Below the pieces are notes generated by a model that was given only the letters and a program-made list of their open reading frames with translations, was not told the DNA's origin and did not search any database. DNA of 64,000 nt, taken from NCBI GenBank assembly GCA_963712735.1, contig CAVQIZ010000005.1, forward strand, positions 490,535 to 554,534, read 5' to 3'. This DNA is from an uncultured Chloroflexia bacterium (GTDB lineage Bacteria > Chloroflexota > Limnocylindria > Limnocylindrales > CSP1-4). Both the position numbers and the translations under genes were made by a program. Of this stretch, positions 33,068 through 35,875 are shown one piece after another. How positions within the stretch are numbered: the stretch's first letter is position 1; each line of letters opens with the position of its first letter.

Positions 33068-34333
33068 GTGACGCTGCTGCAACGCGTGCTTCGCCGCGTT
33101 CCTCCGACCACGGCCAATGCCGCGCATCTGGCTCTGGACATCGGCACCGAGTACGCCAAGGCGCTCGTCTTCGACTACGCCGATGGCGAGGGCGCGGTCG
33201 TCACCGGCGTCGGCCGCCAGCGGCAGGGTCTGTCGCACATGCAGTCCGGTACCGTGGCAGACATCCCGGCAGTCGTGCGCAATTGCCGACTGGCGCTCGA
33301 CGAAGCCGAGAGCATGGCGGGGCGGAGGGCGGAGAAGGTCGTCATCGGCATCGCGGGCGAGCTGGTCAAGGGCTTCACCACCACGCGCAGCATCGAACGC
33401 AAGCGACCCGATTCGTCGGTCACCCATTCGGAGCTGGAGCGGCTGCTCGAGGACATCGAGTCGGAAGCCTCGGCGGAAGCCCAGCGCACGATCACCTGGG
33501 AGACCGGCCTGCCCAATGTCGATGTGCGTCTGGTGCACGCGCAGGTCGCTGCCGCCGGCATCGACGGCTATGCCGTCTCCAATCCGGTCGGCTTCCAGGG
33601 CCGGCACCTGCGCATCTCCGTCTTCAACGCCTATGCCCCGCTCGTCCACCTGGGCGCCCTCGAGTCGGTCGTCGAGCAGCTGGGCCTGGACCTCATCAAG
33701 GTCGTGGCCGAGCCCTATGCCGTCGCGCGCTCCATCTCCGGGGAGCAGGTGGGCCAGTCGGGAGCGCTCTTCATCGACGTCGGCGGCGGCACCACGGACG
33801 TCGCCCTTGTCCGCTCGGGAACGGTCGAAGGCACGCGCATGTTCGCCCTCGGCGGTCGAGCCTTCACCAAGTCGCTGGCGGACCGGCTGGACCTCGACTT
33901 CGAATCGGCGGAGGCGGTCAAGATCGCCCACGCCGCGGGTGAGGACATCGAGGACGCTGAGGAGGTGGCGGCCATCGTCAGCGAGGACGTGGCGGTCTGG
34001 GCTGCGGGTGTCGAGCTGGTGCTGGAGGAGTTCGGGCAGGGTGGGTTGCTGCCCGGCCGCATCGAGCTCTGCGGCGGTGGAGCCGCGCTGCCGGAGATCC
34101 AGGCGGCGCTAGTGGCGCAGGACTTCGGCCCCGAGCTGCCCTTCGCCCGTCGGCCGCTGGTCTCGATGATGCGACCCGACGCGGTCTCCGAGGTGACCGA
34201 CGCCACCGGCTTGCTGGTCGACCAGCAGGACGTGACACCGATGGCACTCGCGTTCCAGGCGGTCGAGGCAGCACAGCCGCAGGAGCCGCTGGATGCCTCG
34301 CTCGGACGCGTGCTGCGAGGGATGCGCGTCTAG
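33068..34333 (+). CDS. FtsA/PilM-like actin-family ATPase outside the dcw cluster
   Basis: Phosphate-1 LDIGTEYAK, connect AEPYAVA, phosphate-2 IDVGGGTTD, adenosine LCGGGAALP; no ftsZ or ftsQ nearby. Confidence 0.85.
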   Translation: MTLLQRVLRRVPPTTANAAHLALDIGTEYAKALVFDYADGEGAVVTGVGRQRQGLSHMQSGTVADIPAVVRNCRLALDEAESMAGRRAEKVVIGIAGELVKGFTTTRSIERKRPDSSVTHSELERLLEDIESEASAEAQRTITWETGLPNVDVRLVHAQVAAAGIDGYAVSNPVGFQGRHLRISVFNAYAPLVHLGALESVVEQLGLDLIKVVAEPYAVARSISGEQVGQSGALFIDVGGGTTDVALVRSGTVEGTRMFALGGRAFTKSLADRLDLDFESAEAVKIAHAAGEDIEDAEEVAAIVSEDVAVWAAGVELVLEEFGQGGLLPGRIELCGGGAALPEIQAALVAQDFGPELPFARRPLVSMMRPDAVSEVTDATGLLVDQQDVTPMALAFQAVEAAQPQEPLDASLGRVLRGMRV

Positions 34334-34348
34334 GGCAGACTGCGGTCG

Positions 34349-35875
34349 ATGGCCGTTTGGTATCTCGACAACGACGATGAGATCACCGATGCCGTCGCAC
34401 GCCTGCGCGGCACCAGCGACGAGCACGTCGTCTTCGTGGTCCCGCCGGGCTCACGCATCGCTACCGGCCGCATCAACTTCCGGCTGCTGTCGCGCGAGGC
34501 CGACGCACGTGGCAAGGAGATGGCCGTCGCCAGCCGCGACCAGCAGGTGCGAGCGCTGGCCGCCGCCGCCGGCGTCCTCGTGGCCGCGACCGCCGAGGAG
34601 GCTGAAGCGGCCCTGGAGCGTGGCGACGAGCCGGCGAGTCCGGCGACATCCGCGGTGCGGGGTGGCGATCGAGCAGAGACCACGAGCGACAGCGCCGTGG
34701 CGGACGCGGATCAGGGCACGCGTCGGCTCACCTGGGGCAGCCAGCGCGCGCGCGTCATGGCACTCACCGCGCTGGTGCTGGTGGTGGTCGGCCTCTTCGC
34801 CGCTTCGCAGCTCCTGCCGACCGCGACCATCACCCTGGAGCCGCGCGTGGCTGAGCTGGGTCCGCTGGAGGTGGCCGTGGTCGCACTGCCGACCGTGTCG
34901 GAGGTGGACGCGGCCGGTGGGCGCATCCCGGCCGTCACGCTGCCCATCCCGCTCGAGGTGCGCGGCACCTTCAGTGCCAGTGGCACGGAGGCACGGGAGG
35001 AACGTGCCACCGGCAGCGTCGTCTTCGCCTCGCCCGAGCAGCCCAACGAGCAACTCATCCCCGCTGGTACTCGTGTACGCACCCCTGCCGGGGTCGAATT
35101 CCAGACCACCGCCACGGTGACCCTGCCGCCGACGGAGGGTGCGGCTTCGCAGGTGAGCGTCCCCATCGAGGCCATCCGCAGCGGCGAGGATGGCAACGTG
35201 TCCGCCGGTGCCATCAGCGTGGTGCCTTCGCTCGAAGAGCAAGGCATCAGCGTGCGCAACCCCGAACCGACCACCGGTGGACGCTTCGAGCAGACGCCCC
35301 GGGTCACGGCCGAGGACTACGACGCGGCCGCCGTCGACCTGCAGAACCGCCTTGCCGGCGCCCTCGTGGCCTACCTCCGCGACCCGGCCAACGCCCCCGA
35401 CGACCTCGAGCTCTACGCCGAGACGGCCCAGCTTGGCCCCGTGCGCAATATCCCGGCCTTCGAGGAACTCGTCGGCGCCAGCGAGACGGAGTTCGAGCTG
35501 CGCGGGGAGGTCATGGCCAGCGTGCTCGCGGTCGACCCGACGCTGCTCGACGAGGCAGCCCGCACACGGCTGCAGGCGGCCGTACCGGAGGGCATGCGCC
35601 TGCTTCCCGACACCGTCCGCGTCGAGCCGGTGGAGGGCACGGCCGACGGCCAGCGCGTCCACTACGACACGCGCGCACAGGCACAGGTGGTCGCCATCGT
35701 CGACCCCTCGGCACTGGTCGACCAGGTGGCCGGCCTGACGGTTTCCGAGGCTCAGGCCATACTTGAGCGGTTCGGCACGGCGACCGTGAGCGTCTGGCCG
35801 GAGTTCCTCGACGGCCTGCCGGCCGATCGTGAGCGTATCGAGCTCGATGTCAGCGAGCCATCGACAACGGAGTGA
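34349..35875 (+). CDS. Single-pass membrane protein with a baseplate J/gp47-like extracellular domain and a PASTA-like C-terminus
   Basis: Soluble N-domain (YLDNDDEITDAVARL), one TM (MALTALVLVVVGLFAA), ATGSVVF...IPAGTRV...EFQT...EAIRSGEDGNV...NPEPTTGG pattern typical of gp47/baseplate J, terminal VAGLTVSEAQAIL. Confidence 0.65.
   Translation: MAVWYLDNDDEITDAVARLRGTSDEHVVFVVPPGSRIATGRINFRLLSREADARGKEMAVASRDQQVRALAAAAGVLVAATAEEAEAALERGDEPASPATSAVRGGDRAETTSDSAVADADQGTRRLTWGSQRARVMALTALVLVVVGLFAASQLLPTATITLEPRVAELGPLEVAVVALPTVSEVDAAGGRIPAVTLPIPLEVRGTFSASGTEAREERATGSVVFASPEQPNEQLIPAGTRVRTPAGVEFQTTATVTLPPTEGAASQVSVPIEAIRSGEDGNVSAGAISVVPSLEEQGISVRNPEPTTGGRFEQTPRVTAEDYDAAAVDLQNRLAGALVAYLRDPANAPDDLELYAETAQLGPVRNIPAFEELVGASETEFELRGEVMASVLAVDPTLLDEAARTRLQAAVPEGMRLLPDTVRVEPVEGTADGQRVHYDTRAQAQVVAIVDPSALVDQVAGLTVSEAQAILERFGTATVSVWPEFLDGLPADRERIELDVSEPSTTE

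Follow-up and report, generated by a model that had tools for sequence, protein, structure and literature searches.

An FtsA-like ATPase and a membrane-anchored, baseplate-like protein in the alaS-ruvX-mltG block of Chloroflexota

Two adjacent genes located between alaS and ruvX in a Chloroflexota genome encode an FtsA-like actin-fold ATPase and a bitopic membrane protein with an ectodomain of the phage baseplate type (designated bpJ), and the pair is shown here to be a vertically inherited cellular module across many Chloroflexota. The genes lie in a stretch of 64,000 nucleotides (the window, G+C ~70%), which represents positions 490535-554534 of contig 5 of a 3.9-Mb, 8-contig genome whose nearest public relatives are metagenome-assembled genomes (MAGs) labelled Limnocylindrales, Chloroflexia or Chloroflexota. 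The FtsA-like gene is a distinct, ancient FtsA paralogue and not the FtsA of the genome. Conservation of the two genes is linked in one direction only: every ATPase gene is accompanied by the membrane-protein gene, which itself is frequently found alone. A previous sequence-only reading of the window had described the two genes as an orphan FtsA-like ATPase and its membrane-anchored partner inside a core operon; the computational analysis that followed it up is summarized here. What that reading had observed was upheld except for a PASTA-like end, and its interpretation found support in part.

The FtsA-like ATPase and its bitopic partner

The two proteins and the regions of bpJ are encoded as follows:

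33068..34333, + strand: FtsA-like actin-fold ATPase, 421 aa (TIGR01174, PF14450, AlphaFold2 (AF2) model, Foldseek, tree)
34349..35875, + strand: bitopic baseplate-like membrane protein (bpJ), 508 aa (PF04865, PHROG_6, Foldseek)
34349..34627, + strand: cytoplasmic N-terminal alpha/beta head of bpJ, residues 1-93 (AF2 predicted local distance difference test score, pLDDT, 91-95; beta-alpha-beta-alpha)
34628..34738, + strand: compositionally biased, disordered cytoplasmic linker, residues 94-130 (pLDDT 30-36; disorder at 99-130 in the AF2 model; mean identity 19%)
34739..34819, + strand: single transmembrane helix, predicted N-in/C-out, residues ~131-157 (Kyte-Doolittle hydropathy, KD19; AF2 helix at 131-154)
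34820..35875 (including the stop codon), + strand: extracytoplasmic wedge-fold domain, residues 158-508 (PF04865, PHROG_6, Foldseek)
35003-35281, + strand: Pfam Baseplate_J core of the ectodomain, residues 219-311 (PF04865)

The FtsA-like open reading frame (ORF) scored 113.7 bits against the FtsA equivalog model TIGR01174, which is under the cut-off of 175.85, and 52 bits against PF14450, and its match to the Pfam SHS2 hidden Markov model (HMM) was weak (17.7 bits vs 25.4). Scores against the PilM, MreB and EutJ models were far lower than that against TIGR01174, and those for PilM remained below the cut-offs (TIGR01175, 36.2 bits vs 133; PF11104, 26.6 vs 27). The AF2 model of the protein (pLDDT 86, predicted TM-score 0.83) has, by Foldseek comparison, the actin fold with the FtsA-type 1C (SHS2) subdomain; the best match was FtsA (7q6i, E 1.5e-28, TM-score 0.75-0.85 over 412 columns), PilM structures came second (TM-score ~0.65-0.78), and MreB was much weaker. 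The intact nucleotide-binding motifs reported in the sequence-only reading are a property of the family, since the phosphate-1 (LDIGTE), phosphate-2 (DVGGGTTD) and adenosine (CGGG) motifs are invariant across 33 orthologues. The amphipathic appearance of the termini, noted at the same time, was borne out as well: both are cationic and amphipathic, with hydrophobic moments at the 99.5th and the 95th percentile of all 14-mers of the protein, and both are kept in the family (N-terminal MxFWRRxWxRD, C-terminal PLDAALRRVLRAMKV). Cationic amphipathic segments of this type serve to attach FtsA or MreB to the inner leaflet of the membrane, and the canonical FtsA proteins of the same genomes also carry a C-terminal amphipathic helix.

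A genome-wide search located the canonical ftsA (415.7 bits against TIGR01174, 101 bits against SHS2) on another contig (C3), directly upstream of ftsZ and, on the same strand, a few kb downstream of murG/murB and ddl, so that the gene of the window is an additional paralogue, in line with the earlier description as an orphan. In a maximum-likelihood tree with MreB as outgroup, 18 FtsA-like proteins encoded between alaS and ruvX in 10 families formed one clade (Shimodaira-Hasegawa-like approximate likelihood ratio test, SH-aLRT, 99; stem 2.62), and canonical FtsA formed a separate one (SH-aLRT 96) that included sequences from three of the same genomes. The family signature IGIAGELVKG stands where canonical FtsA has xxAGxHxxS, and in every inspected locus that has the gene it lies between alaS and ruvX, never in the dcw/ftsZ cluster. 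The genome also encodes two full-length MreB paralogues (C2:651070-652029 and C2:1125360-1126340; 483 and 477 bits against TIGR00904); these account for two additional TIGR01174 matches on contig C2 that were at first taken for PilM.

Not all members of the family are intact. The FtsA-like genes of families f5, f14 and f53 (loci L031, L035, L036 and L145) have long branches of up to 5.07 changes per site, a damaged phosphate-2 motif (e.g. DVGVQHTD, DLGGAVTN) and no IAGELVKG signature. Their products are possibly ATP-blind or decaying, and we read the state of these genes as decay toward a locus that retains bpJ only.

As had been reported from the sequence, the partner gene starts 15 nt downstream and encodes a small cytoplasmic N-terminal domain, one transmembrane helix and a baseplate-J-like outside region; ORF analysis, the AF2 model (overall pLDDT 87.7), PF04865 and PHROG_6 all agree with this layout. 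The hydropathy maximum (KD19) of the membrane helix is 2.33 at residues 134-152, and the predicted N-in/C-out topology is suggested by arginines clustered N-terminal of the helix. For the head, no Pfam family was obtained at E<=10. The ectodomain is beta-rich and multi-domain, scored 37.3 bits against PF04865 (Baseplate_J; gathering score 21.1) and matched PHROG_6 ('baseplate wedge subunit') at 5.6e-16. Its structural similarity to baseplate J proteins was upheld by Foldseek searches against the PDB and BFVD, in which the top matches were phage wedge or triplex proteins. The top 10 matches in the PDB (including 8kea, 9euf, 9gb2, 9ki1 and 8v3w) were all baseplate wedge/triplex or diffocin chains, with E 2e-8 to 1e-4 and probability 0.98-1.0, and came from cyanophage A-1(L), phi812, phiCD508, Pa193, Mu and diffocin. 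In all but one of the ten, the alignment spans 330-390 columns, i.e. nearly the whole ectodomain and the whole target. In BFVD, Baseplate J-like proteins were matched down to E 9e-10. The PASTA-like end that the sequence-only reading had seen was not recovered, as the C-terminal 69 aa (residues 440-508), searched alone, gave no Pfam match, PASTA included, at E<=10, and the corresponding region of a counterpart from the candidate phyla radiation (CPR) carries the annotation 'gp6 C-terminal domain III' (PMC10633639 Table S2).

Across 41 bpJ sequences from more than 25 families, N283, N304, G310 and G311 are invariant, and the motifs GNV...AG and PT.GG are kept. Mean pairwise identity among close relatives is 69% for the head and 43-54% for the segments of the ectodomain. 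The linker is the most variable part in length, ranging across loci from ~35 to ~450 residues, and we read it as a flexible tether. The upper end of this range is found in Ktedonobacteria (f23, loci L118-L121), whose bpJ proteins comprise 881-958 aa with a low-complexity linker of ~450 aa, rich in proline, serine, glutamine and arginine, between head and membrane helix. Frames of 880-1018 aa in this family were considered as fusions of the FtsA-like protein with bpJ and rejected, as they represent the same bitopic protein with the ~450-aa linker, and upstream of it the FtsA-like gene stands on its own. In f20, which is devoid of the FtsA-like gene, local alignment did not detect the head in two of three loci (L135 and L136), and it was weak in L134.

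Distribution, gene order and the counterpart in Southlakia

A census by single-sequence search covered 301 sampled Chloroflexota genomes of 172 genera and detected bpJ relatives in at least 177 genomes and at least 100 genera; the figure of 177/301 is a minimum, since bpJ was recovered with a local profile HMM in two genomes that the single-sequence search had missed. Inspection of 29 + 80 + 4 + 40 + 16 loci revealed that the slot between alaS and ruvX occurs in three states. It is empty (alaS-ruvX-mltG) in four families (f4, f6, f16 and f25), it contains bpJ alone (alaS-bpJ-ruvX-mltG) in ~20 families (e.g. f9, f15, f20, f31, f38 and f59), and it contains both genes (alaS-ftsA-like-bpJ-ruvX-mltG) in 13 families (f1, f3, f5, f7, f14, f17, f21, f22, f23, f26, f44, f53 and f54), of which f26, f44 and f54 were placed here from genome-level co-occurrence and the others from inspected loci. 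Named matches in f23 (Ktedonobacteria) include Dictyobacter sp. and Ktedonosporobacter rubrisoli. All 80 of the 80 Limnocylindria-type loci have the five-gene order with both genes, and the placement of the pair inside the alaS-ruvX-mltG core operon, which had been stated from the window, was extended by gene-neighbourhood comparison. Three loci with the same five-gene block (L044, L083 and L117) come from MAGs that carry the labels Acidobacteriota, Patescibacteria group and Dormiibacterota; alaS of these loci shares 68-84% identity with that of the window, and the taxon labels probably do not give the true placement of these MAGs.

At E<=1e-25, FtsA-like matches were obtained in 93 genomes, one of which (G268) is borderline and not the paralogue, leaving 92. 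All 92 have bpJ, 90 of them being on the list of bpJ-positive genomes and two having bpJ immediately downstream as detected by the profile HMM. About half of the bpJ genomes have no FtsA-like gene. The paralogue is truly absent in genomes with bpJ alone in the slot, because only matches at the level of canonical FtsA (~60 bits) were found there. The proposed co-conservation of the pair therefore stands in one direction, from ATPase to membrane protein, and fails in the other, and on the basis of this asymmetry (92/92 vs about half) we take bpJ to be the core part of the module and the FtsA-like ATPase an accessory. Judged from the conservation of the sequences, the pair is under strong purifying selection: in the 80 closest loci, identity to the window copy is 61-88% for the FtsA-like protein, which is as high as for alaS, and 31-71% for bpJ.

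Ultrasmall CPR bacteria probably have the pair too, as judged by annotation, domain layout and synteny. In Southlakia epibionticum ML1, the block consists of alaS (SEML1_0657), SEML1_0656, SEML1_0655, RuvX (SEML1_0654) and MltG (SEML1_0653) (PMC10633639 Tables S1 and S2). SEML1_0656 is an FtsA-domain protein annotated as 'PilM' with the orthology number K03590, and SEML1_0655, annotated as a 'baseplate J/gp47 family protein', has gp6-type domains behind a head described as SpoIIAA-like (PMC10633639). Both are flagged as core, Patescibacteria-enriched families (PMC10633639 Table S1). In the transposon-sequencing (Tn-seq) data, SEML1_0655 was classified NE/ES/ES (reads 373->34->24) and SEML1_0656 NE/NE/GD (reads 2427->660->221), insertions being lost from the former and depleted in the latter; ruvX was classified NE/ES/ES and mltG NE/NE/NE (PMC10633639). 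FtsA-FtsZ of the canonical type and, separately, a PilM-PilN pair (SEML1_0104/0105) are further listed in the tables, in which no MreB is annotated (PMC10633639). SEML1_0655 and SEML1_0656 appear only in the tables, the main text being silent on both (Wang et al. 2023, PMC10633639). Full-text matches for 'baseplate J' combined with FtsA/Chloroflexi or CPR terms included no paper describing the pair. It is annotated in databases and in one published Tn-seq table and is functionally uncharacterised.

In the window, the gene order on the + strand is alaS, FtsA-like ORF, bpJ, ruvX, mltG, efp, xseA, xseB and dxs, in accordance with the earlier statement that no ftsZ or pil genes are nearby. The genes flanking the pair are:

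30228..33053, + strand: alaS (alanine-tRNA ligase), upstream anchor of the block, recovered by tblastn in almost all related loci
35925..36386, + strand: ruvX (YqgF-type nuclease), PF03652 109.8 bits, syntenic in nearly all loci
36350..37697, + strand: mltG (YceG endolytic transglycosylase), PF02618 182 bits on the 36627-37697 frame

The real start of alaS is probably a later ATG than the ORF start at 30228. The GTG start of the FtsA-like ORF lies 15 nt past the alaS stop, the bpJ ORF starts 15 nt past the end of the FtsA-like ORF, and ruvX follows 49 nt downstream of bpJ with an ATG at 35925 preceded by GAGG. At both junctions of the FtsA-like gene, with alaS (33051-33070) and with bpJ (34331-34351), a TAG stop is followed by GGCAG, with exactly 15 nt up to the next start codon, a shared pattern that may be a translational-coupling signal. 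Between 29.5 and 40.5 kb no terminator was detected in a consensus scan, and the G+C content, calculated in 2-kb windows, shows no visible break across the locus. In the assembly, mltG is split over two frames with a switch between ~36661 and 36684, and residues 1-104 and 112-446 of the intact MltG orthologue of locus L038 match different frames of the window in tblastn; taken alone, this could be an indel of the assembly or a true disruption. As dxs is likewise distributed over three frames within 39995-41873 (DXP_synthase_N 39995-40948, Transket_pyr 41069-41839, Transketolase_C 41511-41873), the two breaks together suggest indel errors of a long-read MAG rather than pseudogenes. A 791-aa ORF at 26811-29186 combines a 'phage holin superfamily IV' domain with four transmembrane segments (PF04020, residues 88-194) with PF01663, a type I phosphodiesterase/nucleotide pyrophosphatase domain.

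A possible envelope scaffold and its alternatives

From the tight linkage of the genes, the stronger conservation of the bpJ head in lineages that retain the ATPase and the depletion in the CPR Tn-seq data we infer that the two proteins may act in one complex on peptidoglycan or in division. Tentatively, and as a possibility somewhat short of probable, we regard the module as a trans-membrane scaffold for envelope or cell-wall growth, with bpJ as its core and an FtsA-like filament as regulator. Where present, the FtsA-like protein would bind to the inner leaflet through its amphipathic termini and polymerise there, and it would engage the cytoplasmic head of bpJ and in this way position or regulate an assembly on the outside, following the principle of FtsA-FtsN, PilM-PilN and MreB-RodZ. 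The wedge-like ectodomain might self-associate or dock on an envelope component at the outer face of the membrane, and bpJ would contribute to growth of the cell wall or envelope, coordinated with the ruvX-mltG block, with which it would be co-transcribed. A more far-reaching version, which we consider speculative and unlikely, is that Chloroflexota and CPR share an ancestral envelope machine in which a domesticated wedge forms a ring or lattice on the outside under its own FtsA-family filament, or that, conversely, the phage wedge derives from this cellular envelope protein.

Coupling of the two proteins can be examined in the constraint on the head. The ratio of head to ectodomain identity between families is 1.42 for six families with an intact FtsA-like gene and 1.13+-0.10 for random six-family sets, 20 of 5000 of which reach 1.42, in a test that is not corrected for phylogeny. 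The higher ratio fits a constraint on the bpJ head by the ATPase; no motif of the N-domain convincingly confined to lineages that have the FtsA-like gene was apparent by eye, and only the quantitative ratio differs. A link to the cell wall is weakly indicated by co-occurrence with MltG (PF02618), which was found in 264/301 genomes: comparison of the lists by hand gave 174 genomes with both bpJ and MltG, 3 with bpJ and without MltG, all of them fragmented MAGs, 90 with MltG and without bpJ, and 34 with neither. The MltG-less genomes are small (1.1-2.4 Mb). The indication is weak, since adjacency of the genes confounds the co-occurrence and MltG was probably lost in few events, largely in one at the level of a clade.

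Besides the missing phylogenetic correction and this confounding, several observations weigh against the scaffold reading. About half of the bpJ genomes (~20 families) lack the FtsA-like paralogue and nevertheless keep the cytoplasmic head, for which a different role or a different binding partner is therefore required. In four families the slot is empty, so that some Chloroflexota with peptidoglycan can dispense with the module. The TM-scores of the bpJ ectodomain in Foldseek are low (~0.2) despite probabilities of up to 1.0, which on the basis of the model is attributed to domains that match those of phage wedges and differ in their relative arrangement or orientation. The essential call for SEML1_0655 could reflect polarity on the essential ruvX. 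Finally, the function of the module is not simply to serve MltG, because mltG is non-essential in Southlakia, where the baseplate-like gene was called essential. Lineages with the adaptor alone and independence from MreB likewise argue against a simple role as 'MltG helper', and all three points speak for a module built on the membrane protein, with the ATPase as a regulatory addition.

Among the alternatives, an accessory function in the divisome would make the FtsA-like protein a second FtsZ tether or an FtsA antagonist and would give the bitopic protein a late role like that of FtsN or FtsQ. The top structural match to FtsA, which includes the FtsA-FtsN complex 7q6i, and the C-terminal amphipathic helix shared with FtsA speak for it, but with genes outside the dcw/ftsZ cluster in all inspected loci, a paralogue far under the equivalog cut-off in its own long-stemmed clade and many lineages that divide without it, we consider it rather unlikely. 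It is also distinctly unlikely that the two genes are independent neighbours, bpJ working alone and the FtsA-like gene having merely landed in a housekeeping operon. Such independence would account for the ~20 families that have bpJ with its cytoplasmic domain and no paralogue and for the degeneration of the FtsA-like gene in f5, f14 and f53; it is at odds with the finding that the paralogue never occurs without bpJ and is directly upstream of it at each inspected locus, and with the stronger constraint on the head where the paralogue is intact.

An inner-membrane platform of the PilM-PilN type for a pilus, competence or another surface filament would agree with the order of an ATPase gene followed by a bitopic-protein gene, which mirrors pilM-pilN, with PilM as second-best fold and with the annotation of the Southlakia counterpart as PilM. 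We consider it improbable, given TIGR01175 and PF11104 scores below the cut-offs, the lack of pilN/O/P/Q or secretin genes near the pair (among the ORFs of the window and in the 80 closest loci), the separate PilM-PilN pair of Southlakia and a partner whose folded cytoplasmic head is unlike the short N-terminal peptide of PilN. As the ectodomain is homologous to wedge proteins of phage baseplates, the locus has also to be considered as what is left of a prophage or contractile-injection system in decay, or as a gene for defence against phages or a decoy for them; this is hardly credible, the remnant form being effectively excluded. In agreement with the earlier claim that no other phage or contractile-injection genes are nearby, the only match to Baseplate_J (PF04865) in the whole genome is bpJ itself, no gp25/gpW homologue (PF04965) was found genome-wide (no separate search was made for gpI, sheath or tube families), and the gene sits in a housekeeping operon, outside any tail or contractile-injection gene set seen. 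The fixed phylum-wide slot, purifying selection, the absence of a G+C break and the Tn-seq fitness cost in Southlakia point in the same direction. A defence system was rejected, as PADLOC gave no significant match but only one of 15.9 bits, which is at chance level.

Returning to the scaffold reading, bacterial actin homologues with bitopic adaptors organise division, pili and cell-wall elongation, and a further FtsA-family system that has an adaptor of its own, the third beside the divisome and the pilus platform, would, if true, be a new element of bacterial cell biology. In addition, the module would clearly exemplify how a structural fold of phages is put to housekeeping use in an envelope protein. 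It is kept in Chloroflexota that are dominant in soil and freshwater and, by annotation, in CPR bacteria, whose adaptor is among the Patescibacteria-enriched core families and was called essential in a single Tn-seq data set. As cultured Ktedonobacteria carry the module, and so does Southlakia, which is genetically tractable, its function is directly testable, and the three slot states (empty, adaptor only, adaptor plus ATPase) offer natural comparisons.

Comparison with known systems

Pairs of an actin-like ATPase and a bitopic adaptor are known in FtsA-FtsN, PilM-PilN and MreB-RodZ. FtsA (with FtsN and FtsQ; 7Q6I, 4A2A, 3WQT) resembles the FtsA-like protein in the actin-like fold over the full length, the intact ATP motifs, the C-terminal amphipathic helix and the single-pass membrane partner. 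Unlike FtsA, the FtsA-like protein has an additional N-terminal amphipathic segment, is encoded away from ftsZ, falls below the TIGR01174 cut-off and belongs to a separate clade, and bpJ differs from FtsN and FtsQ by its folded cytoplasmic head and by an ectodomain of the baseplate type instead of SPOR or POTRA. PilM-PilN (2YCH, 5EOU) shares with the pair the order of an FtsA-family ATPase gene followed by the gene of a bitopic protein, and a related fold (TM-score ~0.65-0.78). In contrast, the pair fails the PilM HMMs and is not accompanied by pilO/P/Q genes, and PilN has a short N-terminal binding peptide and a ferredoxin-like periplasmic domain. MreB-RodZ is similar to the proposed pair in that a bitopic protein whose cytoplasmic domain is folded links an actin-like filament at the membrane with processes in the compartment of the cell wall. 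It differs in the actin subfamily, the matches to MreB being weak, and in the head of RodZ, which is a helix-turn-helix domain, and the module occurs both together with MreB (in the genome of the window) and where no MreB is annotated (in the Southlakia tables).

The phage proteins P2 gpJ, Mu gp47 and T4 gp6 (PF04865, PHROG_6) resemble bpJ by HMM and by fold over nearly the whole ectodomain. Unlike these wedge proteins, bpJ is membrane-anchored, has a cytoplasmic domain, is encoded in a housekeeping operon and differs in the orientation of its domains. The Southlakia counterpart SEML1_0656/0655, compared by annotation, domain table and synteny, agrees with the pair in gene order and in its domain layout of a SpoIIAA-like head and subsequent gp6-type domains. 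The module is best filed as a variation on the theme of an actin-like ATPase with a bitopic adaptor, the adaptor carrying an exapted phage baseplate fold.

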